A stretch of DNA of 64,000 nt from Escherichia coli (GCF_016903815.1 NZ_CP069973.1), one strand, 5' to 3'; shown: positions 893 to 37,223, counted from the stretch's first letter. Notes: generated by a model from the letters alone, not told the origin. Program-made: numbers and translations.

Positions 893-1098
893 TATATGAA
901 TAATATTCTTGCAATAATAGCTTTAAAGTATTGCATGCGGATAACTGAGGTGAAATTCCTGTTTTAGGATTATTGTCACTTTATTTTCCTGGTTAGACAT
1001 ATAGCTGACTGGTTTGTTTATTTGAATTATGATATTCATTAGTGCTACTGTTTTTTATAAAATAATTTTTGAATTGTTATTTTTTCACGGACGGAATT

Positions 1099-2004: not shown

Positions 2005-2006
2005 AA

Positions 2007-2034
2007 CCTGCGCCTGGCGGGATGCCAGGCGCAG
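2007..2034. terminator. Bidirectional rho-independent-like hairpin between the convergent LysR and adenosyltransferase genes
   Basis: cctgcgcctggc-gggat-gccaggcgcagg perfect GC-rich inverted repeat directly after the LysR stop (2002-2004) and after the end of the minus-strand operon (2038). Confidence 0.6.
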
Positions 2035-2037
2035 TTA

Positions 2038-2640: not shown

Positions 2641-2649
2641 TCATTTTCC

Positions 2650-4302: not shown

Positions 4303-4409
4303 ATTTCACTTTTCACCTTAAACGTTAGTGTTACTTAATTGCCGTCTAACTTCATGATCCGGCTTATAAAAATGCGTAGTCATTGGCTTCTGATTGCTTA
4401 AGATCCCCC

Positions 4410-5690: not shown

Positions 5691-5850
5691 TTTTTCCTCC
5701 ATCAGGTGCACGGCGATAAATCAGAATCAGGAGAAGTAGATGCCTGAATAGAGATTCAGGCACCTACCTGCTATTACAACCTTACAAATAGCTGAAGTGT
5801 TGAACTGCAATAAGTGACGGGATGTCAGTTGGCTAAAAGTATTCGGATTT

Positions 5851-6168
5851 TTACAAATCGAAACTCATATTTAATAAAGGTGCATGTTGCTGTGCACCAT
5901 AGACATCATTGTCACCTACATTCCCGGAGATAATATCTCGTGGCATGACGATTTTTACTGCGTTAGAAGGATCAAACCAGACAATACGGTGAATAAAGTC
6001 AGGTTCAACATGATATAAGCGCGCAATCAGTTCTGGGGTTAATTGCCCTGATGATTTAACTCGCTCATAGTTTTCTTTCGTTTTAAATAAAATATCTAAA
6101 ACCAGTTCGTAAGGTCCGGCATTTTTCGAACGAATGACTTGCGCCAGTGAGACAATTGACTGTTTCAT
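5851..6168 (-). CDS. Small conserved protein of unknown function (DUF4387-like), partner of the upstream DUF1446 gene
   Basis: 105 aa ORF whose start overlaps the stop of the 456-aa ORF by 4 nt (translational coupling); family assignment is from memory. Confidence 0.6.
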   Translation of the reverse strand: MKQSIVSLAQVIRSKNAGPYELVLDILFKTKENYERVKSSGQLTPELIARLYHVEPDFIHRIVWFDPSNAVKIVMPRDIISGNVGDNDVYGAQQHAPLLNMSFDL

Positions 6169-7535
6169 GCCTGAACTCCTTCTGGCGTCACCTGTTCAAT
6201 ATGGAAATCAAAACGCAGAGCGTCGTTGGCTTCAATCAGGTGATATATGGAAAATTCGTATACTGGCCCGCCCTGGATATCAGAAGGGGAGAACGGGAAC
6301 GCCAGGTTGCCTGCGGTAGCGATGCGGTTTTCATAGCCGTAGTGCAGCATAGTAGAGCGCACCAGCGAGCAAACGCTGTTGGCAATCTCCTGGGTCGGCG
6401 CAACTACATCTAGGACAATCCCCAGCTCATGCCCGGCAGTTTGCATCGGTTCATGGTCGCCCATCACCCCGTTTTTGCCGTACAGGTGGAAATTGATGTG
6501 AATGCTGTCATCGTCGAGCGACAGGTTACGCGAAACGCTGGTTTTGACTTCATCGATGATTTTATCGATCCCGGCGATCATGATCGGGTCGCGCGTTCCG
6601 GCGATGGTCAGACAGCGGAAGCCCACCCGTCGCGCACCTTCCAGTTTCAGGGCATACGGCGTTTCTTCATGCTTAGAACCGCTGACGTACACTTCGCTGT
6701 CATTGACCGCTTTAAATGTGCAGCCTTTCAGGTTCAACACGCCGCCAGGTCCAGGCAGGAAGTAGGGATCGGATTTCTCATACAGTGTGTGTGCAGCCGC
6801 TGACGTTTCGGTAAATTTACGCTTCGGATTAAATGTCTTCAGCGTAAAGCCGTTGTCATCAATGATGCCCATCGCACAGTCAGAGCCTGAGCCGGGCGTT
6901 GCGGCGATTGCCGCGCATTCAAGGATTTTCCCACAATGCAGCGCCAGACCTTCATCAAAGCCTTGCATGATCGGAAGCGCAGCAAAGCAGGCCGGGTCGT
7001 AAGCGCGCCCGCCCAGCACCACTTGCGCGCCTTCTTTCAGCGCCTGCTGGAAGGGTTCGATGCCCATTTGCGCGACGATATACGTACTTTCGTCAATCGC
7101 GTCGTGGGTTAACGGCGGGACAAAATCCAGCGCCGTGATTTTGCCGTTATCCAGCGCCTGGTGGACGATGGCTTTGTCAACGTCTGCCGGGATCAGCGCC
7201 ATCGAGAACGAGAGGTGCTCTTCCCGGGCAATCTCATGAATTATTTCTCGGCACCACTCCAGGTGTGGTGCGGCACCAGAACCGCCAGCCGTTCCGATCA
7301 CCACCGGTATATTATTTTGCACGCCTGCGGTGATCATATAGCGCAGATCGCGCTTGACCCCTGCGCGATCGGTAAACGGTTTGCCTGCCCCGAGGTAGTG
7401 GGGGCCTGGATCGGAAGAGCCTGCATCAACGGCGATCAGATCGGGCGATTCTGCCATCGCTTTGCGGAAGCTCTCTTCCGGGAATCCATACCCGAGGATT
7501 GCCGTTGGCGATAAGACTTTAAAAGAACGAGCCAT
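6165..7535 (-). CDS. AtuA-like / DUF1446 family protein of unknown function
   Basis: 456 aa ORF, operon-internal between methylaspartate ammonia-lyase and the transporter; resembles the AtuA (acyclic terpene utilisation) DUF1446 family by length and N-terminal motif. No characterised catalytic function known to me. Confidence 0.6.
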   Translation of the reverse strand: MARSFKVLSPTAILGYGFPEESFRKAMAESPDLIAVDAGSSDPGPHYLGAGKPFTDRAGVKRDLRYMITAGVQNNIPVVIGTAGGSGAAPHLEWCREIIHEIAREEHLSFSMALIPADVDKAIVHQALDNGKITALDFVPPLTHDAIDESTYIVAQMGIEPFQQALKEGAQVVLGGRAYDPACFAALPIMQGFDEGLALHCGKILECAAIAATPGSGSDCAMGIIDDNGFTLKTFNPKRKFTETSAAAHTLYEKSDPYFLPGPGGVLNLKGCTFKAVNDSEVYVSGSKHEETPYALKLEGARRVGFRCLTIAGTRDPIMIAGIDKIIDEVKTSVSRNLSLDDDSIHINFHLYGKNGVMGDHEPMQTAGHELGIVLDVVAPTQEIANSVCSLVRSTMLHYGYENRIATAGNLAFPFSPSDIQGGPVYEFSIYHLIEANDALRFDFHIEQVTPEGVQA

Positions 7536-7538
7536 TTG

Positions 7539-8780
7539 TTAATCCTTAGCCTGCAACAGCGCGATAGTACGATTCATTTCGTTGAAGACGATATCGAGGC
7601 CTTCGTCAAAGCCCATCCCTGGTTTTACCAGCATACGCATGGGGCGAGCGGCAAGGGCGACGTGGACACAGGTGCGGGCACTGACATCAGTTTCATTGCA
7701 GGTGCCGCCCTGGTACGCTTCCATGTTGTGGCTGTTGCAATAAAGAACTGCATCGACGATGTTGTGAATACTGCCCAGATCCGGGGTTTTGATTTGCACC
7801 ATGTGGCAACTGGCGGCATCGGTGAAATCAACAATATCCTGGTAGGTGTTACACCATTCATCGGCCACTAGTTTCACGCCGGAACCGAGGCGCGTCAGCT
7901 CTTTGGTAATCGCGGTCAGCAGGCGAATTTGATCGGGCTTGTTACCGGCATCGACCGGACCTTCAATGTAGAGCGGCAGGCCTTGCGCTTCTTTTTCCAG
8001 GCTGGCGATGTATTGCGCACAGCGAAGCGGATCCATATCGAAGATCAGACCGATAGTGCCGTATACATCGATGTGCAGGGTAGGGTGGTAGCGTGCGCTG
8101 GTGCGCTTGCTCAGAATACGATCCGACAGCCAGCGGACATATTCGCGCAGTTTTTCACCTTTAAAGCCCAGTTTCTCTTCGACGTTATTAATCAGTGCAT
8201 GGGGCAGCACGTCGATGCCCTTAAGGATCATCTTATCGACGGCGATATATCGATCGTCGCCGCTCTGACCAAATAATGGAATGGATTCCGCCACGCGTGG
8301 CAACTGCCATTCATCACAGACCACTTCAGTTTTCAGACGGCCGGTTGCCAGCGCGGTAGCATCAAGCAGCGCCTGTGATAATCCGTAGCGCACGGCGGTA
8401 TGCAGCAAGTTGCCGTCAATACGCAATTTGTCGAAGAAACGGGCATTCGGCAGGAAAGTATCCACATCGCGGCCTACCAGTAATGGCTTGATATGGTCGT
8501 TGAGGAACGGAATAAAGTGCTCCGCGAGGAACAGTGGATCGCGACCACCTGCCCCGGAATACTGTACGGCAGCACAGTCACCTACGGCGACCGCGCCGTT
8601 TTCCAGAATCAACTGTACCGATACGCACTCCCCGGCCTGACGTACGGCGTTAAACCCCTGTGTTACTGGCTCCCCGGTATAAAAAAAACCGTCGTGACCC
8701 GCTCCGTTTTTTATCGCCTGCTGGTCATCGAAATAGAATGAGGAGTAGCCAGCGGTAAAAAGGGCCTGTTTTATTTTCAT
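7539..8780 (-). CDS. 3-methylaspartate ammonia-lyase (methylaspartase, enolase superfamily)
   Basis: 413 aa, classic methylaspartase length and enolase-superfamily architecture; immediately downstream of the glutamate mutase genes. Confidence 0.85.
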   Translation of the reverse strand: MKIKQALFTAGYSSFYFDDQQAIKNGAGHDGFFYTGEPVTQGFNAVRQAGECVSVQLILENGAVAVGDCAAVQYSGAGGRDPLFLAEHFIPFLNDHIKPLLVGRDVDTFLPNARFFDKLRIDGNLLHTAVRYGLSQALLDATALATGRLKTEVVCDEWQLPRVAESIPLFGQSGDDRYIAVDKMILKGIDVLPHALINNVEEKLGFKGEKLREYVRWLSDRILSKRTSARYHPTLHIDVYGTIGLIFDMDPLRCAQYIASLEKEAQGLPLYIEGPVDAGNKPDQIRLLTAITKELTRLGSGVKLVADEWCNTYQDIVDFTDAASCHMVQIKTPDLGSIHNIVDAVLYCNSHNMEAYQGGTCNETDVSARTCVHVALAARPMRMLVKPGMGFDEGLDIVFNEMNRTIALLQAKD

Positions 8781-10225
8781 TATGGTCTTCCTATTAATTT
8801 ACTGTGGGATACAGCATTGATGTCATCTACAACCATCTGGAATGTCGGTTGGCGTCCTTCAAAGCGTGCGCGTTCCGCAACGTAATCGTGGTGGAGGTCG
8901 AGAATATCTTTTGGCAATGGAACGGCTCCGGCTTCCAGTACGCGTATCGCGCCGGTGTTGTCACGGACCGGAAGAATTTTGCCCGCGTTACACGCGGCTG
9001 GTGCAAATGGCACATCCAGTACGCCCGCTTCAAATGCCAGCACCGTACCGCGCGCAATATCACCATTACCCAGTTCGAACACTTTATTCAGTACCGCGCG
9101 AACCTCGCTCTTAATCAGTTCAATTTCCAGTTCAACCGCAGGGCACGGCGGGAATTTCTGCTCATTGACCATGTTGAGCATCTGGCGGGAGGCTTTCAGC
9201 CCCTGAATGTTGGCAGCGGCAGTCGGGATTCCCCAGGCTTCGTGAGGGCTTTTGGTGATGACTTTGGTGGCACCAGACATCCCCGCGACGGCTGCACCCC
9301 AGGAGATAATGGCGAACGCTTTCGATTCGTCTTCCGGAAAGCCGCCCATCCACTGGTGAAATACGGTACTTAATTCATAGTCGGTATAGCCATAGTTCTG
9401 AAAGTATTCGTGTGCAAGTTCACGCAGAGACTGGATCGCCGCGACATCCTGCGTCAGGCTGCCGACCTGTCCATAACCAACGGTGATAGATTTCACACCC
9501 TGTTCCAGCGCCAGTAATCCTTCGATTATCGCGATAGAGTGCGAGATAAACGGCGGGATCAGCGTACCCGTTAGTGGGCCAAATGGTTCGCGGTTGATGC
9601 GGATCCCGTGTTCTTCATACATCCCCATTAAACGGTCGCAGTACTGCCAGTCGCGGATCGATTTTTCCAGCGTTACGCGCTTGGCATACGGAATATTGTA
9701 GGAAATGCCGCCGCCTTCATAACTGGTAAAGCCGCTGGCCATCGAGATTTCAGCCAGCAGACGCGCATCTGGCGTGCCGTGGCGGATCTGTAGCGGTTTT
9801 TGCAGAGTTTCGGTGAGGCGACGGCAAGCTGCGACGCCGTGGTTAACGACCGGTAAACCGTTCAGTTTAGAGGTTCCGGCTTCGATGGATTTTTTAATCC
9901 CTACAGCAGCTTCTTCGTACCGATTCAGACGGGTATATGCATCGATGGTGCTCGGCAGCAGATCGCACTCTTCTTGTAGTGTTTTCAGTAGTTCGATGTG
10001 TTCGTCCATCAGCGCCACGCCTGCGCGCGGTTGGCTAAGAGTTTTACCTTCCTTGTCTGCTTTCAGCAGGGCAAGAGAGAAGCGTTTATGCTCAGGAATG
10101 GTTTGTTGGTATTTAACGCCATCTTCAAAGTTTTCAACATCCTTGCCGGTTTCCCAGGTTTTCAATACCTGTTGCCGCTCGGTCATGAATTCGTTATGGG
10201 TTAATTTCTTATTTCGAAGTTCCAT
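8780..10225 (-). CDS. Glutamate mutase epsilon (large catalytic) subunit, MutE/GlmE
   Basis: 481 aa, TIM-barrel large subunit length; operon context with the S and L components. Confidence 0.85.
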   Translation of the reverse strand: MELRNKKLTHNEFMTERQQVLKTWETGKDVENFEDGVKYQQTIPEHKRFSLALLKADKEGKTLSQPRAGVALMDEHIELLKTLQEECDLLPSTIDAYTRLNRYEEAAVGIKKSIEAGTSKLNGLPVVNHGVAACRRLTETLQKPLQIRHGTPDARLLAEISMASGFTSYEGGGISYNIPYAKRVTLEKSIRDWQYCDRLMGMYEEHGIRINREPFGPLTGTLIPPFISHSIAIIEGLLALEQGVKSITVGYGQVGSLTQDVAAIQSLRELAHEYFQNYGYTDYELSTVFHQWMGGFPEDESKAFAIISWGAAVAGMSGATKVITKSPHEAWGIPTAAANIQGLKASRQMLNMVNEQKFPPCPAVELEIELIKSEVRAVLNKVFELGNGDIARGTVLAFEAGVLDVPFAPAACNAGKILPVRDNTGAIRVLEAGAVPLPKDILDLHHDYVAERARFEGRQPTFQMVVDDINAVSHSKLIGRP

Positions 10226-10243
10226 TGATTGCAGCCTTAATTG

Positions 10244-11632
10244 TTATAGGGTTAAGCATTGAATACTGGTGCGCGCGGCGGCCAGTGGATCGACTCTGGC
10301 GACGTTTGCCAGCAGTGGTAATAGCCCCCGGGAATCGCGGTAATATTCAAATTCGGTCGGTAAGAGAATGCGTTTACCGTCGTCGTTTAACTCGCGGTAT
10401 TTCAACCAGTGATGCATATCGAACTGACTGGCACGCGAGAGCCATCCGCCGGAACCCACGACTTTACGCACGGTTGTCAGGTCACGTCCCATCTGTAAAT
10501 CGACATTGCCGACGCAGGTGCAGACCTCTTTTTTGGTGCCCGCATGTCTTTCGGTGGCATAACCCACACACAGTCCGGCCAGGACGGTATCGAAATATTT
10601 TTCTTCTGCATTCGCGGGTAAGTAGTCGGGATGAGCGACTAGATGACGGAGGTAATGATAAAAAGCGTCCAGCTGTGCGGGTTGCTGAGCAAAATTCACA
10701 TTGACTAACTCTTTCGCACTTTCACCAACCACCATTGCCGAGACGCGCATTCCCAGATCGCCTTCCACCGTCCGTTTCACGAAGGGTTCCGGTACGCCAT
10801 GTAAAACAGTGTCGGGCGAGAGCGTGTTGGCACAGGCTGAATAGACATCGGTGGTTGCGCCGCCCATGTCGATCAGCATGAACTCCTTCCAGCTGTGATC
10901 GACGTTACTGATTGCCTTAACCAGTTCAAAGACCGTCCATGGTGTCGGCATTGGTTCTTCGCCTGTTTTATCAACAATGACATCCAGCCCTTTCCCTTTA
11001 ACGATGCGTTTAAGGAATATGTCGCAGATAGCCTGGCGTGCAGCTAAAGGGTTCGGATGGTCAAGATCGGGCAGAACGTTGTCGACGATGGTCAGGTCTT
11101 TATGCCCTAGGATCTCCTGCACCTCGTCCTGAATATCCCGGTTTCCGGCATAAATAATGGCGCAGTCGAGTTTGGATTCTGCCAGCACACGGGCGTTATT
11201 CAGGCCGTAGCTTTCTTCTCCGCCGTCGGTGCCGCCGGTGAACAAGAGAATATCGGGCTGCGTTTCTTCCAGTGCCTGGATATCACGGCGGTTCAGCTTG
11301 TAGGCGTAATATTGCGCAATTTTAGCCCCCGCAGAGTGAGCGGTTACTTTCGCGGTTTCCAGGGTGATAGAAGGCACCAATCCCATTGCGGCAACCGCCA
11401 GCCCACCTTTGGCAGAGGAGGAATACTTCAATGTAACCTCACCGCTGTTAAACAGGGGGAGGGCATTATCTACGTTTAACACCAGGTTCAGGCTGGAGAA
11501 AAACCCCTTCGCCAGATGATGGGTGGTGGTTGGGGTCAGTACGTGGTTAACCAACGTTAACGCGTCCCCCTCCCGGGCGAAGAGGGCTGCTTTGGTCCAC
11601 GTCGAACCAATATCGACAGAGACGATTTGCAT
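10244..11632 (-). CDS. Glutamate mutase L component (MutL/GlmL, reactivating chaperone-like ATPase)
   Basis: 462 aa ORF between the S and E subunits, the typical glmS-glmL-glmE order; ASKHA-like N-terminus ([18 protein letters not shown]). Confidence 0.8.
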   Translation of the reverse strand: MQIVSVDIGSTWTKAALFAREGDALTLVNHVLTPTTTHHLAKGFFSSLNLVLNVDNALPLFNSGEVTLKYSSSAKGGLAVAAMGLVPSITLETAKVTAHSAGAKIAQYYAYKLNRRDIQALEETQPDILLFTGGTDGGEESYGLNNARVLAESKLDCAIIYAGNRDIQDEVQEILGHKDLTIVDNVLPDLDHPNPLAARQAICDIFLKRIVKGKGLDVIVDKTGEEPMPTPWTVFELVKAISNVDHSWKEFMLIDMGGATTDVYSACANTLSPDTVLHGVPEPFVKRTVEGDLGMRVSAMVVGESAKELVNVNFAQQPAQLDAFYHYLRHLVAHPDYLPANAEEKYFDTVLAGLCVGYATERHAGTKKEVCTCVGNVDLQMGRDLTTVRKVVGSGGWLSRASQFDMHHWLKYRELNDDGKRILLPTEFEYYRDSRGLLPLLANVARVDPLAAARTSIQCLTL

Positions 11633-12081
11633 CAGATTGCCTCTTCAAGAATGCGAGTATCAACGTTATGACGTTGGTTGATATCGTGGGCCATCAGCTG
11701 ACAAACATCTTCTAAGTCATGACTTGGGGAAAAGACGCGATCAAATCCCATCTCTTTGAACTTGGTTTCCACGTCAGCGAAGTCATGTTTTCCGACCACC
11801 AGGTTACCGCCCACATAGAGCAGGATGTTACCCAGCCCACGCTCGATGCAGCGTTCGCGCATGCCCAGACAATCGATATCGCCATGCCCATAGATAGAGG
11901 AGACGACAATCGCGTCAGCACCAGTTTCAATGGCAGCATCAATATATTCGTCCTGGCTGACCATTACGCCCAGATTAATAACTCTGAAGTCATGGTTGCT
12001 AAAAACGCGGTCCAGAACTTTATTGCCTACTGCATGGCAGTCCGCGCCAATAACGCCAATCACAAGTGTTGCTTTCTTCAT
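11632..12081 (-). CDS. Glutamate mutase sigma (B12-binding) subunit, MutS/GlmS
   Basis: ORF 11632-12144; cobalamin-binding DxHxxG motif ([11 protein letters not shown]). Start trimmed to ATG 12081 ([12 protein letters not shown]), preceded by AAGGA, giving 149 aa. Confidence 0.8.
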
Positions 12082-12627
12082 GGGTAATCCTTTGTAAGAC
12101 AGAGAGTAAAATAAGTTACACACGTCGTATTTATGGCCGCTCATAACGGCACAGGTTTAATATCACAGGAGTGTCTTTATCTGACCGTAATGTTGCAATT
12201 GATCTATTTTCAAAATGTCTTTCGGGAAATGATTGTTTAAAGTGTGTTTTCAAATTCTCATTTTAATTCAGTGTGTTATGTCAACTAATGTCATGAATGT
12301 TAAATTTTTAAAATTAACTTGATTTGATGTATTGAGATAATTGTGATCAACTTCTAATTTGCATTTTTGTGACGTGGCTTTAGCCATGAGTAAATGCATT
12401 TCATAAAAGTTAAGTCGAATTTCACTGCAATTCATCTCTGCTTAATGTAAAAATAATGTTGAAAATAACAAATAATTAATGATTCATGCGAATTATGACC
12501 TTTGTTAGCTCTTTTGATTTTTCGTAAAAAAGAAAAGTACATGAAGGTGCTACCAGTACGAGTAACGTTAATCAAAAGTTTTATTACGTCTGGCAATAAC
12601 GCAGGCCATTTTCGCGACTGGGTGGAT

Positions 12628-13050
12628 TTAATCAGTATAATCCTCATACAATAGGTCAGGATTTACTGAACCGTTAACGGGGATTTGGTGTTGAAATTTA
12701 GAAATGGCGGAGTCAATTAATGAAGACAATATCGGAAAAATGACAGTGTCAGAATTAATTTCAATTAATCCTTCTCGTTGTTGACCAAAAAAGATATTTA
12801 TCTTGATTTCATTTGTACTACGGCAATCAATATGCAGTAATTTTTGATCGCTGAGATTTTCTGTTTCATAAATGTTTTTGGCGATAGTCGGATGTATTGA
12901 TGCCAGACATCTGCTCAGATAAGCCAGATCCTTTAGGGAACACCCCGCTGAGTAGAGGATGTCAGAGAATTTTTGTGTGTCAACTGTTGTCTCTGAAGCG
13001 TATGTTGCATTGACAGGAAGGGTGTTGAAAGAGATTTGAGATGGGATCAT
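12628..13050 (-). CDS. Hypothetical protein, no recognisable family (orphan, AT-rich)
   Basis: 140 aa ORF in a strongly AT-rich block, co-directional with and 80 bp downstream of the 314-aa ORF; no motif I can assign. Confidence 0.5.
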   Translation of the reverse strand: MIPSQISFNTLPVNATYASETTVDTQKFSDILYSAGCSLKDLAYLSRCLASIHPTIAKNIYETENLSDQKLLHIDCRSTNEIKINIFFGQQREGLIEINSDTVIFPILSSLIDSAISKFQHQIPVNGSVNPDLLYEDYTD

Positions 13051-13130
13051 TATTTAAATCTTTCCGTGAGTAATAAAAATTAATCCCCGGGCATTGTTTG
13101 GCAATATTTGCCACAGGGAATATATAAAAA

Positions 13131-14075
13131 TTAAAGTATTTGATTGGCATCGGTTAACTGATCAATAACCAGTGCCAGATTGGTAAACATTTTGAAAAAG
13201 CGATACTGGCTCGGAATATCTCTTTCAAAGACGAAACATTCAATGTCATTGTTTGAAAAATAAAGGACTAGTGTTGCTGATTCGTCAGGAAAAATATGGA
13301 AATATATCTGGTTACCAGAAGGAGGATAGTCCAGAAGAAGGGTATCTTTGCCCGTCACATACCTGTTGTGGTCGTGGATGCTGCGCTCACACTTCATCAG
13401 AGGTGTCATGATACTCATGTATTCATCTGATGTTAATATATTAAAATCACCATCCATTTTAAAGAAACGATAAAGTAACAGTACATCCTCTTGCGTAACC
13501 GGTTCGTTTGTTTTTAGAGGGAAATAAGTGGGAACCAGAAGATGAGGTTCTAATCTATTTTGTTGAGCGCTATAACTAAATTTGAACATAAATTCCGGAT
13601 CGCTCATCAATTGAGCGACATAATTATGCCTGGCTTCAAAAATTTTAACTTTTATCAGGTTAAATAAGTCTGTTTCGTCATCCTGTATTAAAAGACATTG
13701 ACCATAGCAGCCAGGCTTTTTTTCATTATAAGCAGAAACGGTTATTCTGTCAGGAGTGTCAACGTTATATCCAAAAGCCAGATAGTGACCTTCCTCATCG
13801 AGATTTGTTTCCAGGTTATTTAAATTCATCACATGAAGTGTTTGCAATGCTGATTCAATGAGCTGTTGACTCTCTGAGGTAAATGTTTCGCGCTGCGTTG
13901 TATAAAGTGTATCGATTCCAACGACTATCCGATGTGGATCAAGGATGGCGGCAATCATCTTTATTACCTGCACAGTCATGGGTGATGTCATTGATTCTTT
14001 ATCTGTTTTTAGAGGATCATTAGATGGCCAACCTGAGAAGCGATTGACAGCAGAACTGATATTATCAGGACTCAT
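13131..14075 (-). CDS. Hypothetical protein, no recognisable family (orphan, AT-rich)
   Basis: 314 aa ORF, uninterrupted, in AT-rich DNA between the glutamate operon and the cydA regulatory region; codon usage atypical for the E. coli core. Confidence 0.55.
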   Translation of the reverse strand: MSPDNISSAVNRFSGWPSNDPLKTDKESMTSPMTVQVIKMIAAILDPHRIVVGIDTLYTTQRETFTSESQQLIESALQTLHVMNLNNLETNLDEEGHYLAFGYNVDTPDRITVSAYNEKKPGCYGQCLLIQDDETDLFNLIKVKIFEARHNYVAQLMSDPEFMFKFSYSAQQNRLEPHLLVPTYFPLKTNEPVTQEDVLLLYRFFKMDGDFNILTSDEYMSIMTPLMKCERSIHDHNRYVTGKDTLLLDYPPSGNQIYFHIFPDESATLVLYFSNNDIECFVFERDIPSQYRFFKMFTNLALVIDQLTDANQIL

Positions 14076-14880
14076 AGCAGCAACCTCATTGTAATCAAGC
14101 GAGGCGCTGAGCGTACTCGGCTATAGAAAAACTAACTTGCAAAAATCGCTCATTTTTCATTTATCAGGCGAAAGTGGTCTCTGTTCACTCAGAAACAATC
14201 ACTCCCGCTAAGTCATACCTGTTTCATCGATACATTTAAGTGATTATTACTAATGAAACAATAACATAACGGGCTTACGGCCGGTGCTCATAAAGGCAAC
14301 AATCAATTAACTTTGATAAAAATATGTTATGTAAAATAGCAACAAATTGGCTAATCTAATCAATTGGTATTATAAAAAGTGGATAGGGCGGTTCTGTTAA
14401 ATAAAACACTGGTTTTTTATCTATACCTTTTCATTGTAATAATTGTGTTGCATAAATATTTCACAATAAATTAACAATAAAATCACCAATGATCTATGGT
14501 TTATACATAATTAACATATTTGGTTGGTTTTGATATAAATCAATTTTTAATTCTTGAAAAAAATCTGCAAAACACGATAAATTGTCGTAGATCAAATTGG
14601 TGAGATCGTGACAATTTCGCTATAAATTGATCACTGTCGAAAAATGCAAATTTGCTCAATAAAAACCTGTTTATTGTAAGGATTTTGCGGCGTAATATAA
14701 TTACGGGATCAATTTGGTTTATTCATTAACATATTTGTAACTTTTTTATCATTGTCTTTTCCTCTTTTGATGAAATGGCAACGATAGAGGCGAGCAAATA
14801 ATTTTGTATTGGGGCATGCGTGTGACCCTTTCTAACGGGGTTCACTCTCGGAGTCTTCATGCGATGAGCAAGGAGTCATG
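14076..14880 (+). promoter_or_regulatory. Long AT-rich cydA upstream control region (multiple promoters, ArcA/FNR/H-NS regulated in K-12)
   Basis: About 800 bp non-coding AT-rich DNA directly upstream of cydA, as expected for the cydAB control region; individual sites not resolved by eye. Confidence 0.6.
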
Positions 14881-16449
14881 ATGTTAGATATAGTCGAACT
14901 GTCGCGCTTACAGTTTGCCTTGACCGCGATGTACCACTTCCTTTTTGTGCCACTGACGCTCGGTATGGCGTTCCTGCTGGCCATTATGGAAACGGTCTAC
15001 GTCCTTTCCGGCAAACAGATTTATAAAGATATGACCAAGTTCTGGGGCAAGTTGTTTGGTATCAACTTCGCTCTGGGTGTGGCTACCGGTCTGACTATGG
15101 AGTTCCAGTTCGGGACTAACTGGTCTTACTATTCCCACTATGTAGGGGATATCTTCGGTGCGCCGCTGGCAATCGAAGGTCTAATGGCCTTCTTCCTCGA
15201 ATCCACCTTTGTAGGTCTGTTCTTCTTCGGTTGGGATCGTCTGGGTAAAGTTCAGCATATGTGTGTCACTTGGCTGGTGGCGCTCGGTTCAAACCTGTCC
15301 GCACTGTGGATTCTGGTTGCGAACGGCTGGATGCAAAACCCAATCGCGTCCGATTTCAACTTTGAAACTATGCGTATGGAGATGGTGAGCTTCTCCGAGC
15401 TGGTGCTTAACCCGGTTGCTCAGGTGAAATTCGTTCACACTGTAGCGTCTGGTTATGTGACTGGCGCGATGTTCATCCTCGGTATCAGCGCATGGTATAT
15501 GCTGAAAGGTCGTGACTTCGCCTTCGCTAAACGCTCCTTTGCTATCGCTGCCAGCTTCGGTATGGCTGCCGTTCTGTCTGTTATTGTTCTGGGTGATGAA
15601 TCTGGTTACGAAATGGGCGACGTGCAGAAAACCAAACTGGCTGCTATTGAAGCCGAGTGGGAAACGCAACCTGCGCCTGCTGCCTTTACTCTGTTCGGCA
15701 TTCCTGATCAGGAAGAGGAGACGAACAAATTTGCGATCCAGATCCCTTACGCGCTGGGCATCATTGCAACGCGTTCCGTGGATACTCCAGTTATCGGCCT
15801 GAAAGAACTGATGGTGCAGCATGAAGAACGCATTCGTAACGGGATGAAGGCGTACTCTCTGCTCGAACAACTGCGTTCTGGTTCTACCGACCAGGCGGTT
15901 CGTGACCAGTTCAATAGCATGAAGAAAGACCTCGGTTACGGTCTGCTGCTGAAACGCTATACGCCAAACGTGGCTGATGCGACTGAAGCGCAGATTCAAC
16001 AGGCAACCAAAGACTCCATTCCGCGTGTAGCGCCGCTGTACTTCGCGTTCCGTATCATGGTGGCGTGTGGCTTCCTGCTGCTGGCAATCATCGCGCTCTC
16101 TTTCTGGAGTGTCATCCGCAACCGCATTGGCGAGAAAAAATGGCTGCTGCGCGCCGCGCTGTACGGTATTCCGCTGCCGTGGATTGCTGTAGAAGCGGGC
16201 TGGTTCGTGGCTGAATATGGCCGCCAACCGTGGGCTATCGGTGAAGTGCTGCCGACAGCTGTGGCGAACTCGTCACTGACCGCAGGCGATCTCATCTTCT
16301 CAATGGTGCTGATTTGCGGCCTGTATACCCTGTTCCTGGTGGCAGAATTGTTCTTAATGTTCAAGTTTGCACGCCTCGGCCCAAGCAGCCTGAAAACCGG
16401 TCGCTATCACTTTGAGCAGTCTTCCACGACTACTCAGCCGGCACGCTAA
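14881..16449 (+). CDS. cydA: Cytochrome bd-I ubiquinol oxidase subunit I
   Basis: Translation [28 protein letters not shown]... matches CydA; ORF track starts one Met earlier (14878). Confidence 0.97.
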
Positions 16450-16464: not shown

Positions 16465-17604
16465 ATGATCGATTATGAAGTATTGCGTTTTATCTGGTGG
16501 CTGCTGGTTGGCGTTCTGCTGATTGGTTTTGCAGTCACTGACGGTTTCGACATGGGGGTGGGCATGCTCACCCGTTTCCTCGGTCGTAACGACACCGAGC
16601 GTCGAATTATGATTAACTCCATTGCACCACACTGGGACGGTAACCAGGTTTGGCTGATCACCGCGGGCGGCGCACTCTTTGCTGCCTGGCCGATGGTCTA
16701 TGCCGCTGCGTTCTCCGGATTCTATGTGGCGATGATCCTCGTGCTGGCGTCTTTGTTCTTCCGTCCGGTCGGTTTTGACTACCGCTCCAAGATTGAAGAA
16801 ACCCGCTGGCGTAACATGTGGGACTGGGGCATCTTCATTGGTAGCTTCGTTCCGCCGTTGGTGATTGGTGTAGCGTTCGGTAACCTGTTGCAGGGCGTAC
16901 CGTTCAACGTTGATGAATATCTGCGTCTGTACTACACCGGTAACTTCTTCCAGCTGCTTAACCCGTTCGGCCTGCTGGCTGGCGTGGTGAGCGTAGGGAT
17001 GATCATTACTCAGGGCGCGACTTACCTGCAAATGCGTACCGTGGGCGAACTGCACCTGCGTACCCGTGCAACGGCTCAGGTGGCGGCACTGGTGACACTG
17101 GTCTGTTTCGCACTGGCTGGCGTATGGGTGATGTACGGTATCGATGGTTATGTCGTGAAATCGACAATGGACCATTACGCAGCCTCTAACCCGCTGAATA
17201 AAGAAGTGGTTCGTGAAGCTGGCGCATGGCTGGTTAACTTCAACAACACGCCAATTCTGTGGGCTATTCCGGCACTGGGTGTGGTTCTGCCGCTGCTGAC
17301 CATCCTGACTGCACGTATGGATAAAGCCGCGTGGGCGTTTGTGTTCTCCTCCCTGACGCTGGCCTGCATCATCCTGACTGCCGGTATCGCAATGTTCCCG
17401 TTTGTGATGCCGTCCAGCACCATGATGAACGCAAGTCTGACAATGTGGGATGCAACATCCAGCCAGCTGACGCTTAACGTCATGACCTGGGTTGCGGTGG
17501 TTCTGGTACCGATCATTCTGCTCTACACCGCCTGGTGTTACTGGAAAATGTTCGGTCGTATCACCAAAGAAGATATTGAACGTAACACCCACTCTCTGTA
17601 CTAA
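16465..17604 (+). CDS. cydB: Cytochrome bd-I ubiquinol oxidase subunit II
   Basis: 379 aa, [31 protein letters not shown]..., directly after cydA. Confidence 0.97.
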   Translation: MIDYEVLRFIWWLLVGVLLIGFAVTDGFDMGVGMLTRFLGRNDTERRIMINSIAPHWDGNQVWLITAGGALFAAWPMVYAAAFSGFYVAMILVLASLFFRPVGFDYRSKIEETRWRNMWDWGIFIGSFVPPLVIGVAFGNLLQGVPFNVDEYLRLYYTGNFFQLLNPFGLLAGVVSVGMIITQGATYLQMRTVGELHLRTRATAQVAALVTLVCFALAGVWVMYGIDGYVVKSTMDHYAASNPLNKEVVREAGAWLVNFNNTPILWAIPALGVVLPLLTILTARMDKAAWAFVFSSLTLACIILTAGIAMFPFVMPSSTMMNASLTMWDATSSQLTLNVMTWVAVVLVPIILLYTAWCYWKMFGRITKEDIERNTHSLY

Positions 17605-17618
17605 GTAAGGAGCTAAAA

Positions 17619-17732
17619 ATGTGGTATTTCGCATGGATTCTGGGAACGCTTCTTGCCTGTTCGTTTGGGGTAATCACCGCGCTGGCGCTTGAGCACGTCG
17701 AATCAGGCAAAGCCGGTCAAGAAGACATCTGA
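17619..17732 (+). CDS. cydX: Cytochrome bd-I oxidase small subunit CydX (YbgT), 37 aa
   Basis: Manual translation MWYFAWILGTLLACSFGVITALALEHVESGKAGQEDI; below the ORF-track size cutoff; its stop overlaps the ybgE start. Confidence 0.9.
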   Translation: MWYFAWILGTLLACSFGVITALALEHVESGKAGQEDI

Positions 17733-18025
17733 TGAGTAAGATTATCGCAACCTTGTATGCGGTAATGGACAAGCGCCCCCTGCGGGCGCTTTCCTTCGTG
17801 ATGGCGCTTCTGTTAGCCGGATGTATGTTTTGGGATCCATCACGTTTCGCCGCGAAGACCAGTGAACTGGAAATCTGGCATGGTTTATTGCTGATGTGGG
17901 CCGTCTGTGCTGGTGTGATTCACGGCGTGGGCTTTCGTCCGCAGAAGGTTCTTTGGCAAGGGATTTTTTGCCCATTGCTTGCCGATATTGTTCTCATTGT
18001 CGGGCTGATTTTCTTCTTCTTTTAA
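17732..18025 (+). CDS. ybgE: cyd operon protein YbgE
   Basis: 97 aa membrane protein immediately after cydX. Confidence 0.9.
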   Translation: MSKIIATLYAVMDKRPLRALSFVMALLLAGCMFWDPSRFAAKTSELEIWHGLLLMWAVCAGVIHGVGFRPQKVLWQGIFCPLLADIVLIVGLIFFFF

Positions 18026-19764: not shown

Positions 19765-21063
19765 GTGTCAAAGGCAACCGAACAAAACGACAAGCTCAAG
19801 CGGGCGATAATTATTTCAGCAGTGCTGCATGTCATCTTATTTGCGGCGCTGATCTGGAGTTCGTTCGATGAGAATATAGAAGCTTCAGCCGGAGGCGGCG
19901 GTGGTTCATCCATCGACGCTGTCATGGTTGATTCAGGTGCGGTAGTTGAGCAGTACAAACGCATGCAAAGCCAGGAATCAAGCGCGAAGCGTTCTGATGA
20001 GCAGCGCAAGATGAAGGAACAGCAGGCTGCTGAAGAACTGCGTGAGAAACAAGCGGCTGAACAGGAACGCCTGAAGCAACTTGAGAAAGAGCGGTTAGCT
20101 GCTCAGGAACAGAAAAAGCAGGCTGAAGAAGCCGCAAAACAGGCCGAGTTAAAGCAGAAGCAAGCGGAAGAAGCGGCAGCGAAAGCGGCGGCAGATGCTA
20201 AAGCGAAGGCCGAAGCGGATGCTAAAGCTGCGGAAGAAGCTGCGAAGAAAGCGGCTGCAGACGCGAAGAAAAAAGCAGAAGCAGAAGCCGCCAAAGCCGC
20301 AGCCGAAGCGCAGAAAAAAGTCGAGGCAGCCGCGGCGGCACTGAAGAAGAAAGCGGAAGCGGCAGAAGCAGCTGCAGCTGAAGCAAGAAAGAAAGCGGCA
20401 ACTGAAGCTGCTGAAAAAGCCAAAGCAGAAGCTGAGAAGAAAGCGGCTGCTGAAAAGGCTGCAGCTGAGAAGAAAGCGGCTGCTGAAAAGGCTGCAGCTG
20501 ATAAGAAAGCGGCAGCAGAGAAAGCTGCAGCCGACAAAAAAGCAGCAGAAAAAGCGGCTGCTGAAAAGGCAGCAGCTGATAAGAAAGCAGCGGCAGAAAA
20601 AGCCGCCGCAGACAAAAAAGCGGCAGCTGCAAAAGCAGCAGCTGAAAAAGCCGCTGCAGCAAAAGCTGCCGCAGAGGCAGATGATATTTTCGGTGAGCTA
20701 AGCTCTGGTAAGAATGCACCGAAAACGGGGGGAGGGGCGAAAGGGAACAATGCTTCGCCAGCCGGGAGTGGTAATACTAAAAACAATGGCGCATCAGGGG
20801 CCGATATCAATAACTATGCCGGGCAGATTAAATCTGCTATCGAAAGTAAGTTCTATGACGCATCGTCCTATGCAGGCAAAACCTGTACGCTGCGCATAAA
20901 ACTGGCACCCGATGGTATGTTACTGGATATCAAACCTGAAGGTGGCGATCCCGCACTTTGTCAGGCTGCGTTGGCAGCAGCTAAACTTGCGAAGATCCCG
21001 AAACCACCAAGCCAGGCAGTATATGAAGTGTTCAAAAACGCGCCATTGGACTTCAAACCGTAA
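19765..21063 (+). CDS. tolA: Tol-Pal system protein TolA
   Basis: 432 aa; N-terminal MSKATEQNDKLKRAIIISAVLHVILFAALIW, long Ala/Lys/Glu-rich repeat domain II, conserved C-terminal domain. Confidence 0.97.
   Translation: MSKATEQNDKLKRAIIISAVLHVILFAALIWSSFDENIEASAGGGGGSSIDAVMVDSGAVVEQYKRMQSQESSAKRSDEQRKMKEQQAAEELREKQAAEQERLKQLEKERLAAQEQKKQAEEAAKQAELKQKQAEEAAAKAAADAKAKAEADAKAAEEAAKKAAADAKKKAEAEAAKAAAEAQKKVEAAAAALKKKAEAAEAAAAEARKKAATEAAEKAKAEAEKKAAAEKAAAEKKAAAEKAAADKKAAAEKAAADKKAAEKAAAEKAAADKKAAAEKAAADKKAAAAKAAAEKAAAAKAAAEADDIFGELSSGKNAPKTGGGAKGNNASPAGSGNTKNNGASGADINNYAGQIKSAIESKFYDASSYAGKTCTLRIKLAPDGMLLDIKPEGGDPALCQAALAAAKLAKIPKPPSQAVYEVFKNAPLDFKP
20150..20690 (+). repeat. Tandem degenerate coding repeats in tolA domain II (AAEKAAADKKAAAEK-type units)
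   Basis: Repeated gctgcagctga[ag]aa[ga]aaagcggc units visible in the DNA; the source of the low-complexity antisense ORFs in the track. Confidence 0.8.
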
Positions 21064-21195: not shown

Positions 21196-22488
21196 ATGAA
21201 GCAGGCATTACGAGTAGCATTTGGTTTTCTCATACTGTGGGCATCAGTTCTGCATGCTGAAGTCCGCATTGTGATCGACAGCGGTGTAGATTCCGGTCGT
21301 CCTATTGGAGTTGTTCCTTTCCAGTGGGCGGGTCCTGGTGCGGCACCTGAAGATATTGGCGGCATCGTTGCTGCTGACTTGCGTAACAGCGGTAAATTTA
21401 ATCCGTTAGATCGCGCTCGTCTGCCACAGCAGCCGGGTAGTGCGCAGGAAGTACAACCAGCTGCATGGTCCGCACTGGGCATTGACGCTGTAGTTGTCGG
21501 TCAGGTCACTCCGAATCCGGATGGTTCTTACAATGTTGCTTATCAACTTGTTGACACTGGCGGCGCACCGGGTACTGTACTTGCTCAGAACTCGTACAAA
21601 GTGAACAAGCAGTGGCTGCGTTATGCTGGTCATACCGCCAGTGATGAAGTGTTTGAAAAACTGACCGGCATTAAAGGTGCGTTCCGTACCCGTATTGCCT
21701 ACGTTGTTCAGACCAACGGCGGTCAGTTCCCGTATGAACTGCGCGTATCTGACTATGACGGTTACAACCAGTTTGTCGTTCACCGTTCACCGCAGCCGCT
21801 GATGTCTCCGGCGTGGTCACCAGACGGTTCTAAACTGGCTTATGTGACCTTCGAAAGCGGTCGTTCCGCGCTGGTCATCCAAACGCTGGCAAATGGCGCT
21901 GTACGTCAGGTGGCTTCATTCCCGCGTCACAACGGTGCACCTGCATTCTCGCCAGATGGCAGCAAACTGGCATTCGCCTTGTCGAAAACCGGTAGTCTGA
22001 ACCTGTACGTAATGGATTTGGCTTCTGGTCAGATCCGCCAGGTGACGGATGGTCGCAGTAACAATACCGAACCGACCTGGTTCCCGGACAGCCAGAACCT
22101 GGCATTTACTTCTGACCAGGCCGGTCGTCCACAGGTTTATAAAGTGAATATCAACGGCGGTGCGCCACAACGTATTACCTGGGAAGGTTCGCAGAACCAG
22201 GATGCGGATGTCAGCAGCGACGGTAAATTTATGGTAATGGTCAGCTCCAATGGTGGGCAGCAGCACATTGCCAAACAAGATCTGGCAACGGGAGGCGTAC
22301 AAGTTCTGTCGTCCACGTTCCTGGATGAAACGCCAAGTCTGGCACCTAACGGCACTATGGTAATCTACAGCTCTTCTCAGGGGATGGGATCCGTGCTGAA
22401 TTTGGTTTCTACAGATGGGCGTTTCAAAGCGCGTCTTCCGGCAACTGATGGACAGGTCAAATTCCCTGCCTGGTCGCCGTATCTGTGA
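21196..22488 (+). CDS. tolB: Tol-Pal system periplasmic protein TolB
   Basis: [21 protein letters not shown] signal peptide followed by beta-propeller; ORF track begins one Met earlier (21193). Confidence 0.97.
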
Positions 22489-22498
22489 TAATAATTAA

Positions 22499-23044
<546 letters not shown>

Positions 23045-23053
23045 GAGAATTGC

Positions 23054-23845
23054 ATGAGCAGTAACTTCAGACATCAACTATTGAGTCTGTCGTTACTGGT
23101 TGGTATAGCGGCCCCCTGGGCCGCTTTTGCTCAGGCACCAATCAGTAGTGTCGGCTCAGGCTCGGTCGAAGACCGCGTCACTCAACTTGAGCGTATTTCA
23201 AATGCTCACAGCCAGCTTTTAACCCAACTCCAGCAACAACTCTCTGATAATCAATCCGATATTGATTCCCTGCGTGGCCAGATTCAGGAAAATCAGTATC
23301 AACTGAATCAGGTCGTGGAGCGGCAAAAGCAGATCCTGTTGCAGATCGACAGCCTCAGCAGCGGTGGTGCAGCGGCGCAATCAACCAGCGGTGATCAAAG
23401 CGGTGCGGCGGCATCAACGACGCCGACAGCTGATGCTGGTACTGCGAATGCTGGCGCGCCGGTGAAAAGCGGCGATGCAAACACGGATTACAATGCAGCA
23501 ATTGCGCTGGTGCAGGATAAATCCCGCCAGGATGACGCAATGGTGGCATTTCAGAATTTCATCAAAAATTACCCTGATTCAACTTACCTGCCAAACGCCA
23601 ATTATTGGCTGGGTCAGTTAAACTACAACAAGGGTAAAAAAGATGATGCGGCGTACTATTTTGCTTCGGTAGTAAAAAACTATCCGAAGTCACCAAAGGC
23701 TGCAGATGCGATGTTTAAAGTCGGCGTCATCATGCAGGACAAAGGTGACACCGCAAAAGCGAAAGCCGTATACCAGCAGGTTATCAGTAAATACCCTGGT
23801 ACTGATGGCGCTAAACAGGCACAAAAACGTCTGAACGCGATGTAA
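23054..23845 (+). CDS. cpoB: Cell division coordinator CpoB (YbgF), TPR protein
   Basis: 263 aa, signal peptide, coiled-coil and C-terminal TPR region; last gene of the tol-pal cluster. Confidence 0.95.
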   Translation: MSSNFRHQLLSLSLLVGIAAPWAAFAQAPISSVGSGSVEDRVTQLERISNAHSQLLTQLQQQLSDNQSDIDSLRGQIQENQYQLNQVVERQKQILLQIDSLSSGGAAAQSTSGDQSGAAASTTPTADAGTANAGAPVKSGDANTDYNAAIALVQDKSRQDDAMVAFQNFIKNYPDSTYLPNANYWLGQLNYNKGKKDDAAYYFASVVKNYPKSPKAADAMFKVGVIMQDKGDTAKAKAVYQQVISKYPGTDGAKQAQKRLNAM

Positions 23846-23851
23846 TGCATA

Positions 23852-23888
23852 ACACACGACCAGAAGTCGCATTATTTCTGGTCGTGTC
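23852..23888. terminator. Hairpin downstream of cpoB
   Basis: acacgaccagaa...ttctggtcgtgt inverted repeat just after the cpoB stop; no strong T-run. Confidence 0.5.
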
Positions 23889-24009
23889 GTGCGAATCATA
23901 AGCAGTTGAGTGATCTACATCGAAATTTTTGTTGCGCTCAAGTCTGAAATCAGTAATATATGCCGCCGTTGCCACGGGATATCAAACAAACCGAAAGCAA
24001 CGAAAAAGT

Positions 24010-24085
24010 GGGTCGTTAGCTCAGTTGGTAGAGCAGTTGACTTTTAATCAATTGGTCGCAGGTTCGAATCCTGCACGACCCACCA
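24010..24085 (+). tRNA. lysT: tRNA-Lys (anticodon UUU)
   Basis: GGGTCGTTAGCTCAGTTGGTAGAGCAGTTGACTTTTAATCAATTGGTCGCAGGTTCGAATCCTGCACGACCCACCA, 76 nt with encoded CCA. Confidence 0.97.
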
Positions 24086-24220
24086 ATCGCTAAGGTGGAA
24101 GCGGTAGTAAAACGTGAAGGATAACGTTGCGTCAGCAACGGCCCGAAGGGCGAGACGAAGTCGAGTCATCCTGCACGACCCACCACTAACCTAGTTAGTT
24201 GTAGTATCCAGCGTAGTATC

Positions 24221-24296
24221 GGGTGATTAGCTCAGCTGGGAGAGCACCTCCCTTACAAGGAGGGGGTCGGCGGTTCGATCCCGTCATCACCCACCA
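24221..24296 (+). tRNA. valT: tRNA-Val (anticodon UAC)
   Basis: GGGTGATTAGCTCAGCTGGGAGAGCACCTCCCTTACAAGGAGGGGGTCGGCGGTTCGATCCCGTCATCACCCACCA. Confidence 0.97.
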
Positions 24297-24298
24297 CC

Positions 24299-24374
24299 GG
24301 GTCGTTAGCTCAGTTGGTAGAGCAGTTGACTTTTAATCAATTGGTCGCAGGTTCGAATCCTGCACGACCCACCA
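24299..24374 (+). tRNA. lysW: tRNA-Lys (UUU)
   Basis: Identical to the tRNA-Lys at 24010; 2 nt after the preceding tRNA-Val. Confidence 0.97.
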
Positions 24375-24425
24375 CTAATTACGGTGGGTTCGGTGGAAGT
24401 AGTTTGTAGTATCCAGCGCAGTATC

Positions 24426-24501
24426 GGGTGATTAGCTCAGCTGGGAGAGCACCTCCCTTACAAGGAGGGGGTCGGCGGTTCGATCCCGTCATCACCCACC
24501 A
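24426..24501 (+). tRNA. valZ: tRNA-Val (UAC)
   Basis: Identical to the tRNA-Val at 24221. Confidence 0.97.
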
Positions 24502-24504
24502 CTC

Positions 24505-24580
24505 GGGTCGTTAGCTCAGTTGGTAGAGCAGTTGACTTTTAATCAATTGGTCGCAGGTTCGAATCCTGCACGACCCACCA
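24505..24580 (+). tRNA. lysY: tRNA-Lys (UUU)
   Basis: Identical tRNA-Lys sequence. Confidence 0.97.
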
Positions 24581-24726
24581 ATTTTAACATCAAACTCAGA
24601 TGTTAAGCGTGAAGGATAACGTTGCGCCGGCAACGGCCCGTAGGGCGAGCGAAGCGAGTCATCCTGCACGACCTACCAATTTTAAAGATTGGTTCCGAGT
24701 AGAAATCTTTCAGGTAACACCCGTAT

Positions 24727-24802
24727 GGGTCGTTAGCTCAGTTGGTAGAGCAGTTGACTTTTAATCAATTGGTCGCAGGTTCGAATCCTGCACGACCCAC
24801 CA
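24727..24802 (+). tRNA. lysZ: tRNA-Lys (UUU)
   Basis: Identical tRNA-Lys sequence. Confidence 0.97.
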
Positions 24803-24934
24803 ATTTAAAGGTGGTTACTGGTAGAGAACGTGAAGGATAACGTTGCGTTAGCAACGGCCCGAAGGGCGAGACGAAGTCGAGTCATCTTGCACGACCCACC
24901 ATCCTGAATGATTAAAGCAGCATAATCCCGCAAG

Positions 24935-25010
24935 GGGTCGTTAGCTCAGTTGGTAGAGCAGTTGACTTTTAATCAATTGGTCGCAGGTTCGAATCCTGCA
25001 CGACCCACCA
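24935..25010 (+). tRNA. lysQ: tRNA-Lys (UUU)
   Basis: Identical tRNA-Lys sequence; last tRNA of the operon. Confidence 0.97.
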
Positions 25011-25014
25011 ATGT

Positions 25015-25042
25015 AAAAAAGCGCCCTAAAGGCGCTTTTTTG
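25015..25042 (+). terminator. Rho-independent terminator of the lysT tRNA operon
   Basis: aaaaaagcgccctaaaggcgcttttttg directly after lysQ; an exact second copy lies at 25161-25187. Confidence 0.85.
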
Positions 25043-25353
25043 CTATCTGCGATACTCAAAGATTCGAACCTGCAGCAGGTTTGAGTTGAGCGCAGCGAAA
25101 CAACGGAGCCGCTCGCGGCGACGGCCCGAAGGGCGAGCGAAGCGAGTCATCCTGCACGACCCACCAATGTAAAAAAGCGCCCTAAAGGCGCTTTTTTGCT
25201 ATCAGGCATCTCTCAATTTCAATTCTTAACCCTGATGACATACTCCGCGCTTGCTGCGTAAACAACTCTACGTCGGAGGAATAAGACGCAAAGTGTGGCA
25301 TTCGTCATCTCATACGTAATTCGAGTGACTTTTCCCCACCATTCGACTATCTT

Positions 25354-33345: not shown

Positions 33346-33348
33346 TTC

Positions 33349-34395: not shown

Positions 34396-34404
34396 GGTCG
34401 TTCC

Positions 34405-35421: not shown

Positions 35422-35499
35422 AATTCGCTCCATTAGGCTTATGGTATGAAATAACCATAGCATAACAAAGATGCGAAAAGTGTGACATGGAATAAATTA

Positions 35500-37156: not shown

Positions 37157-37223
37157 TTTATATCCCATTTTGTGCAGCGATTACTGACAGGGATACGTGT
37201 TTCATAACAAATTGTCAACACGC

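Follow-up and report, generated by a model that had tools for sequence, protein, structure and literature searches.

A 60-aa ORF cutoff hides two characterised small membrane proteins, CydX and AcrZ, in a 64-kb stretch of an Escherichia coli chromosome

CydX (also YbgT) is the 37-aa subunit X of the cytochrome bd-I ubiquinol oxidase of E. coli and has been resolved as chain X in the structures 6RKO and 6RX4. Published genetics shows that bd-I oxidase activity requires CydX, and an E. coli cydX deletion is reported to be complemented by closely related as well as by divergent homologues (PMC4325964). A paralogous single-helix subunit, CbdX (AppX/YccB), is the small subunit of the bd-II oxidase and belongs to the same Pfam family as CydX. 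The second system considered here is AcrZ (YbhT; PF10766), which binds the transmembrane domain of AcrB and the deletion of which sensitises to a subset of AcrB substrates, e.g. chloramphenicol (PMC7267776). Pro16 of AcrZ is required for the interaction with AcrB, the effect of cardiolipin is additive, and transcription of acrZ is co-regulated with that of acrAB (PMC7267776, citing Hobbs et al. 2012). Moreover, tagged AcrZ is listed among the best-expressed small proteins in MG1655 (bioRxiv 10.1101/511675).

Here, we analysed a 64,000-nt stretch of an E. coli chromosome, referred to as the window, in which an ORF list with a 60-aa cutoff leaves out the genes for both of these proteins. Two stretches of the window around the reported coordinates were tested and are 100% identical to strain 7/2 (NZ_CP023820.1), while the identity of the same two stretches to almost all other complete E. 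coli genomes is 95-99%. Position 1 of the window corresponds to position 795796 of NZ_CP023820.1, and the RefSeq gene coordinates were taken over from strain 7/2. In this RefSeq annotation, cydX and acrZ (b4515 and b0762, respectively, in K-12) are the only annotated protein genes in the window encoding 60 aa or less, followed in size by moaD (81 aa) and ybgE (97 aa). Because only these two genes are that short, the 60-aa cutoff misses cydX and acrZ and no others. Both are already known and are annotated in RefSeq at the exact coordinates. Thus, we regard it as virtually certain that cydX and acrZ are ordinary, already characterised E. coli genes, the products of which are single-helix inner-membrane proteins.

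The assignment of cydX (17619-17732, plus strand) is supported by the RefSeq annotation, its translation, identity to a PDB chain, Pfam and NCBIfam matches, conservation, and initiation mapping by Ribo-RET. A first-pass annotation had placed a 37-aa CydX frame, too short for the ORF list, at this position, and that placement holds in full: positions 17619-17732 of the plus strand translate cleanly to MWYFAWILGTLLACSFGVITALALEHVESGKAGQEDI, 37 aa in length and followed by a stop codon, and RefSeq has a CDS at identical coordinates. The protein is identical at every residue to PDB chain 6RKO_X ('Cytochrome bd-I ubiquinol oxidase subunit X'), and this chain sequence is present in nine entries. It scores 53.9 bits against Pfam PF08173 (YbgT_YccB; cutoff 26.2) and 70.7 bits against the NCBIfam equivalog TIGR02106 (cutoff 31.6). 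By contrast, the CbdX model NF011333 gives a weak N-terminal match only (residues 1-17; 21.7 bits vs. a cutoff of 57); because this score is far under the cutoff, the CydX of the window is not CbdX, the gene of which we take to follow appCB and to lie outside the window. The most hydrophobic stretch of 19 residues (residues 6-24) has a hydropathy of 2.05, and the C-terminal tail is charged. The protein accession WP_000270282.1 is common to the annotations of strain 7/2 and BL21(DE3); compared to BL21, the DNA of cydX has one synonymous difference (codon 25, GAG vs. GAA) and the protein has none. Because this CydX is 100% identical to chain X of 6RKO, and because of the complementation described in PMC4325964, we infer that the CydX of this strain belongs to the CydAB complex and that the oxidase requires it for activity. 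It would then function as subunit X of the cytochrome bd-I ubiquinol oxidase, and would be placed against CydA as in the solved complex.

The signals around the gene are those of the described system, i.e. the 37-aa sequence, the position after cydB, the RBS and the overlap with ybgE are all the same as for the known CydX. Upstream lies the operon gene cydB (16465-17604, plus strand; RefSeq and ORF list), which ends with a stop codon at 17602-17604. The Shine-Dalgarno sequence AAGGAG (17607-17612, plus strand) begins 2 nt after this stop codon and is separated from the ATG of cydX by 6 nt, so that cydX starts 14 nt past the cydB stop. The predicted duplex with the anti-Shine-Dalgarno sequence is -8.4 kcal/mol, which ranks in the top 10% by strength among the annotated starts of the window; the medians are -5.85 kcal/mol for the annotated genes in the window and -2.0 kcal/mol for all candidate starts. 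The AAGGAG core is retained across related loci. These observations agree with the earlier statement that cydX has a proper RBS and context.

To assess conservation, we used a CydB-based scan of representative bacterial genomes, which returned 80 loci from Escherichia albertii to Gilliamella and Shewanella. A CydX-like ORF in the same orientation begins 8-26 nt past cydB in 80/80 loci, and its start, MWYFAWILGTLLAC, is almost invariant across them. Over codons 1-27 of cydX, the differences from the window sequence number 317, 101 and 974 at codon positions 1, 2 and 3, respectively, and pN/pS is 0.13 in the annotated frame as opposed to 0.99 and 4.9 in the other two frames. Thus, cydX is under strong purifying selection and has a clear coding signature in the stated frame. 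For initiation, we relied on the available part of a published Ribo-RET data set (Table S1 of bioRxiv 10.1101/2021.07.02.450978), the values of which are given in BL21(DE3) coordinates for the plus strand. There, the start peak at the cydX ATG in BL21 is 541 RPM, compared to 602 RPM for cydA and 272 RPM for cydB (bioRxiv 10.1101/2021.07.02.450978). The first pass had proposed ribosome profiling with retapamulin-type initiation mapping as a check on this region, and for cydX the published start peak, as far as the table is available, is strong.

The downstream gene ybgE (17732-18025, plus strand; 97 aa; RefSeq, ORF list and PF09600) is directly connected to cydX. The last base of the cydX stop codon is the first base of the ybgE ATG (TGATG, 17730-17734), and of the 65 related loci with a ybgE-like ORF, 57 have a stop/start overlap in the form of TGATG, ATGA or an 8-nt overlap. 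The Shine-Dalgarno match of ybgE itself is weak (-2.4 kcal/mol), and the available part of the BL21 Ribo-RET table contains no start peak for ybgE. Because the stop/start overlap recurs, the ybgE RBS is weak and no ybgE start peak is listed, ybgE is likely translationally coupled to cydX. cydX is the third gene of the cydABX-ybgE operon and has its own strong AAGGAG RBS for translation.

The second hidden gene, acrZ (38141-38290, plus strand), had been described as a 49-aa frame below the cutoff. Here as well, the frame translates cleanly to 49 aa and coincides with a RefSeq CDS at identical coordinates. The protein equals PDB chain 4C48_C ('Multidrug efflux pump accessory protein AcrZ') at every residue, and its sequence is also present in the PDB entries 4CDI, 5NC5, 6SGR and 6SGS. 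Against Pfam PF10766 it scores 102.9 bits (cutoff 26.2) and covers positions 1-47 of the 48 model positions. No NCBIfam model matched AcrZ and, therefore, the family assignment rests on the Pfam match together with the identity to the PDB chain. Its most hydrophobic 19 residues (residues 8-26) have a hydropathy of 3.08, and Pro16 is present. The RBS and context ascribed to acrZ were also recovered: the Shine-Dalgarno sequence GGAG (38131-38134, plus strand) is 6 nt upstream of the ATG and forms a duplex of -5.9 kcal/mol, which is about the median of annotated genes, and the neighbours are modE and modA as in K-12. Downstream of the gene, a scan detected an intrinsic terminator (38297-38326, plus strand) with a 9-bp G+C-rich stem, GAATGCCCG...CGGGCATT, and a T-rich tail. 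An imperfect palindrome, CGTTATATTGACGCCTACATAACG (38413-38436), is located just 5' of modA and is nearly invariant in three strains; we take it to be, probably, the ModE operator.

Compared to K-12, the 49-aa sequence, Pro16, the location between modE and modA, the RBS and the terminator are the same, and the acrZ CDS is identical at the DNA level; the post-terminator T-tract alone differs, by one base. In a strain that is 94% identical over the region, the CDS has a single substitution (Gly46 to Arg). The spacer downstream of acrZ has substitutions and indels among the compared strains, including differences of 1-2 nt in the length of the terminator T-tract. Of 5426 complete E. coli genomes, 5391 have the acrZ locus and 35 lack it, and acrZ is annotated in 30/30 genomes sampled across the identity range. 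acrZ stands alone between modE and modA, and the GGAG RBS and the intrinsic terminator are its own. Its product would form a kinked helix bound in a groove of the transmembrane domain of AcrB and, in cooperation with cardiolipin, would alter AcrAB-TolC efflux of a subset of drugs such as chloramphenicol.

The regulators underlying the co-regulation of acrZ with acrAB are reportedly MarA, Rob and SoxS. A scan of 38013-38140 for the marbox consensus, allowing up to two mismatches, gave no site; the same scan gave 16 hits across the window vs. 17 expected, i.e. it operates at chance level and is without power. As a consequence, the reported control by MarA, Rob and SoxS is invisible with the marbox consensus. 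In BL21(DE3), galM is truncated and everything from there up to ybhC is missing (compared with approximately 31163-49131 of the window, galM to ybhJ), so that this strain lacks galKTE, modFE, acrZ, modABC, ybhA, pgl and ybhDHIJ. We therefore rejected a reading of the absence of AcrZ from the Ribo-RET table as a lack of translation: because BL21(DE3) has no acrZ, profiling in BL21 is uninformative on the translation of AcrZ.

At both loci, the ORF list offers competing frames. At acrZ, it contains a 61-aa ORF (38226-38411, plus strand) that starts with a TTG inside the 3' end of acrZ, ends 2 nt before the palindrome and had been noted earlier as overlapping and out of frame with acrZ; the ORF is indeed present and it is artefactual. 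In its favour as the real gene at this locus, with the 49-aa frame being incidental, it is the sole ORF of at least 60 aa in the modE-modA spacer. However, apart from its TTG start, it has no Pfam or NCBIfam match, it contains no hydrophobic helix (best 19-residue window 0.85), and it passes through the terminator hairpin and T-tract of acrZ towards the modA promoter region, while the 49-aa AcrZ frame is the protein present in several solved AcrB complexes. Because the length of the T-tract differs by 1-2 nt between strains, the frame of the 61-aa ORF is shifted in K-12 MG1655 and in 23CRST031 and continues into unrelated downstream sequence. This frameshift in other strains refutes the 61-aa ORF as a gene, and we consider the chance that it is one to be negligible. 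An alternative that leaves both loci in place but changes their starts is that AcrZ begins at the in-frame TTG at 38135, giving 51 aa, or that the ribosome signal at cydX belongs to a GTG-started frame of 23 aa (17621-17692). Both of these starts exist in the ORF list, and the available part of the Ribo-RET table gives the cydX peak twice, at the ATG and at the GTG 2 nt downstream. For acrZ, however, the TTG at 38135 abuts the GGAG with zero spacer and, because it follows the GGAG directly, is badly placed for initiation, whereas RefSeq and the solved complexes both have the 49-aa form. For cydX, purifying selection acts in the ATG frame only (pN/pS of 0.13 vs. 4.9 in the GTG frame) and the ATG-frame CydX is the protein in the oxidase structure; because the coding signature lies in the ATG frame, the 23-aa frame can be disposed of. 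We therefore find it extremely unlikely that either alternative start is the correct one, and retain the 37-aa and 49-aa frames.

A broader question is raised by the caution in the first-pass annotation that more small proteins could hide in three AT-rich leaders of the window. This is logically true of any length cutoff; the tests reported here, however, gave no support for such proteins. By RefSeq, the limits of the three regions are 510-1098, 12082-12627 and 14076-14880, with a GC content of 0.34, 0.32 and 0.33, respectively, vs. 0.51 for the window. The second region had previously been given a boundary at 12145 because the longest glmS ORF was taken. That ORF (11632-12144, minus strand; 170 aa) has its ATG at 12144, which is 63 nt beyond the RefSeq start at 12081 (149 aa). 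All ORFs of 8-70 codons were listed for both strands, with ATG, GTG and TTG accepted as start codons, and the duplex with the anti-Shine-Dalgarno sequence was scored upstream of every one. Among intergenic starts, 37 of 368 (10%) reach -5 kcal/mol. Because this fraction is the same as that among all 3500 candidate starts in the window, there is no enrichment of RBSs in the intergenic regions; the systematic search for small ORFs with an RBS model that had been proposed as a check thus failed to single them out. The other proposed check, ribosome profiling of the leaders, yielded marginal calls only in the published data as far as these are available.

Two of the three regions are within a part of the window (1-14075) that is unlike K-12. 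Upstream of cydA, between sucD and cydA, the window carries an island where K-12 has mngR-mngA-mngB (mngRAB). The island encodes a methylaspartate (glutamate mutase) pathway with glmS, glmL, mutase subunit E, methylaspartate ammonia-lyase, a class I fumarate hydratase, a dicarboxylate symporter and cobO, and further contains genes of the RtcB and LysR families. The spacer between glmS and a hypothetical gene in this island (12082-12627) was searched for small ORFs and none was supported. It contains no candidate start with a Shine-Dalgarno match of -5 kcal/mol or better, and none of its longest ORFs is intact in all three of the other island-carrying strains compared; for a 71-aa ORF at 12432-12647, this assessment was based on internal starts. 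This glmS-side spacer is present in 1135 of 5426 complete genomes, O157:H7 included. No feature is annotated in it in 25 genomes sampled from these 1135, and it has no entry in the RIBOseq catalogue of O157:H7 Sakai, in which the shortest listed ORFs are 93 nt. In the current Sakai annotation, the locus tag ECs_0765 is missing between ECs_0764 and ECs_0766 at the spacer matching 12082-12627, which suggests that an ORF was once called there and later withdrawn. The spacer between the RtcB-family and LysR-family genes (510-1098) is complete in 144 genomes only. Small ORFs were sought here too and none found support: a moderate Shine-Dalgarno sequence precedes three ORFs only, which are 11-23 codons long and all start with TTG or GTG, several ORFs are broken in one comparison strain, and the sampled RefSeq genomes have no annotated small gene there.

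The third region, the leader and promoter region of cydA (14076-14880), also provided no supported small ORF. Only its proximal ~400 nt can be aligned across Enterobacteriaceae. In this part, no ORF is intact in more than 16 of 25 species, and the ORFs that reach this number are without a usable RBS. On the plus strand of the leader, the available part of the Ribo-RET table has only a 4-codon TTG ORF (11 RPM) and an 11-codon GTG ORF (0.8 RPM). The 31-aa ORF XECs075 from the Sakai RIBOseq study maps to 14634-14729 (plus strand), and the window has a CTG at 14634 instead of an ATG. The block immediately before cydA (14800-14880) is highly conserved, and an upstream ORF that ends on the cydA start (14816-14881) was considered. 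It is intact in 6/25 species only and was rejected because indels shift its frame in most species. The same block contains a predicted hairpin in the cydA 5' UTR (14822-14845; GUGACCC...GGGUUCAC), which recurs at the corresponding position in 20 of 21 Enterobacteriaceae, with stem sequences that differ, and its median z-score vs. shuffled sequences is -2.3. A second predicted stem (14853-14877), in which CUUC is paired with the GGAG of the cydA RBS, is invariant and shows no covariation. RNAalifold applied to a plain MAFFT alignment recovered only this invariant RBS stem and not the hairpin at 14822-14845, because indels misalign the arms of the latter. Altogether, an RNA hairpin accounts for the conserved block better than an upstream ORF does.

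Published initiation signals also point to short ORFs elsewhere in the window. A 23-codon ORF inside tolB and out of frame with it (21533-21604, plus strand) has a start peak of 259 RPM in the available part of the BL21 Ribo-RET table, which is higher than that of the tolB start itself (131 RPM). The neighbouring gene tolA (19765-21063) is 1299 nt long in the window, 1266 nt in K-12 and BL21(DE3), and 1185 nt in O157:H7 Sakai; these differences presumably reflect variation of the Ala/Lys-rich repeat region. An 18-codon ORF, MHNTRPEVALFLVVSCES (23845-23901, plus strand), has its ATG on the cpoB stop codon (TAATG) and a start peak of 27 RPM in BL21 in the same part of the table. It contains the cpoB terminator hairpin, and the TAATG overlap recurs in many Enterobacteriaceae. 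Neither the tolB-internal nor the cpoB-overlapping ORF is conserved as a protein. Finally, XECs076 (41761-41910, plus strand) occupies the ybhA-pgl interval in antisense orientation to the 5' end of ybhA and is 62 aa in Sakai, while the window retains a GTG-started remnant of 49 aa. As to RNA elements in the window, Rfam matches above the gathering score are the CpoB/ybgF thermometer (22945-23083), which spans the pal-cpoB junction, four RtT elements (24017-25166) in or after a cluster of seven lysine/valine tRNA genes, the molybdenum cofactor riboswitch (59961-60105) 5' of moaA, and the Hfq-binding RNA STnc490 (63693-63816) just 5' of an IS200 transposase gene.

Could the window, in the leaders or elsewhere, then hold further functional small proteins beyond CydX and AcrZ that have escaped annotation? 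A length cutoff hides any further small gene, start peaks are published for the tolB-internal ORF (259 RPM) and the cpoB-overlapping ORF (27 RPM), as far as the table is available, and XECs075 and XECs076 were called by RIBOseq in O157:H7 Sakai, the former within the cydA leader and the latter in the ybhA-pgl interval. Against such proteins, the ATG of the tolB-internal ORF is kept in 5 of 64 species only; the cpoB-overlapping ORF varies in length from 4 to 18 codons, and the conserved element is the terminator hairpin; XECs075 has a CTG for its ATG in the window and is labelled 'pseudo' by the classifier of its own authors; and XECs076 is truncated in the window. More generally, the proportion of intergenic starts with an RBS (37/368) is no higher than window-wide, the cydA leader lacks any ORF conserved throughout 25 species, and the ten best candidate short peptides have no Pfam or NCBIfam match above threshold. 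The current K-12 record includes experimentally validated small proteins, and for the region shared with the window it lists no further gene encoding 50 aa or less. In view of these findings, further functional small proteins in the window are quite unlikely. That some unannotated and poorly conserved short ORF of the window is functional, either by encoding a micropeptide specific to the lineage or by regulating translation of its host operon, is in our estimate very unlikely; the strongest candidate for such a role is the tolB-internal ORF (21533-21604), the start peak of which exceeds that of tolB and which is not conserved beyond Escherichia. Thus, CydX and AcrZ remain the supported small proteins of this window, and because the same tests reject the ORFs of the leaders, the earlier caution points to nothing new here.

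The value of these findings is that of a quality control only. The 60-aa cutoff hides two of approximately 70 annotated protein genes in the window and, at acrZ, it puts a spurious overlapping ORF in the place of the real gene. At the same time, cydX can be recovered without prior knowledge by combining the RBS score, the conservation of an intact ORF, and a frame-specific comparison of synonymous and non-synonymous changes across species, and these same tests reject the other short ORFs of the AT-rich leaders. The two proteins hidden in this way both have solved structures and known roles, in respiration and in drug efflux.
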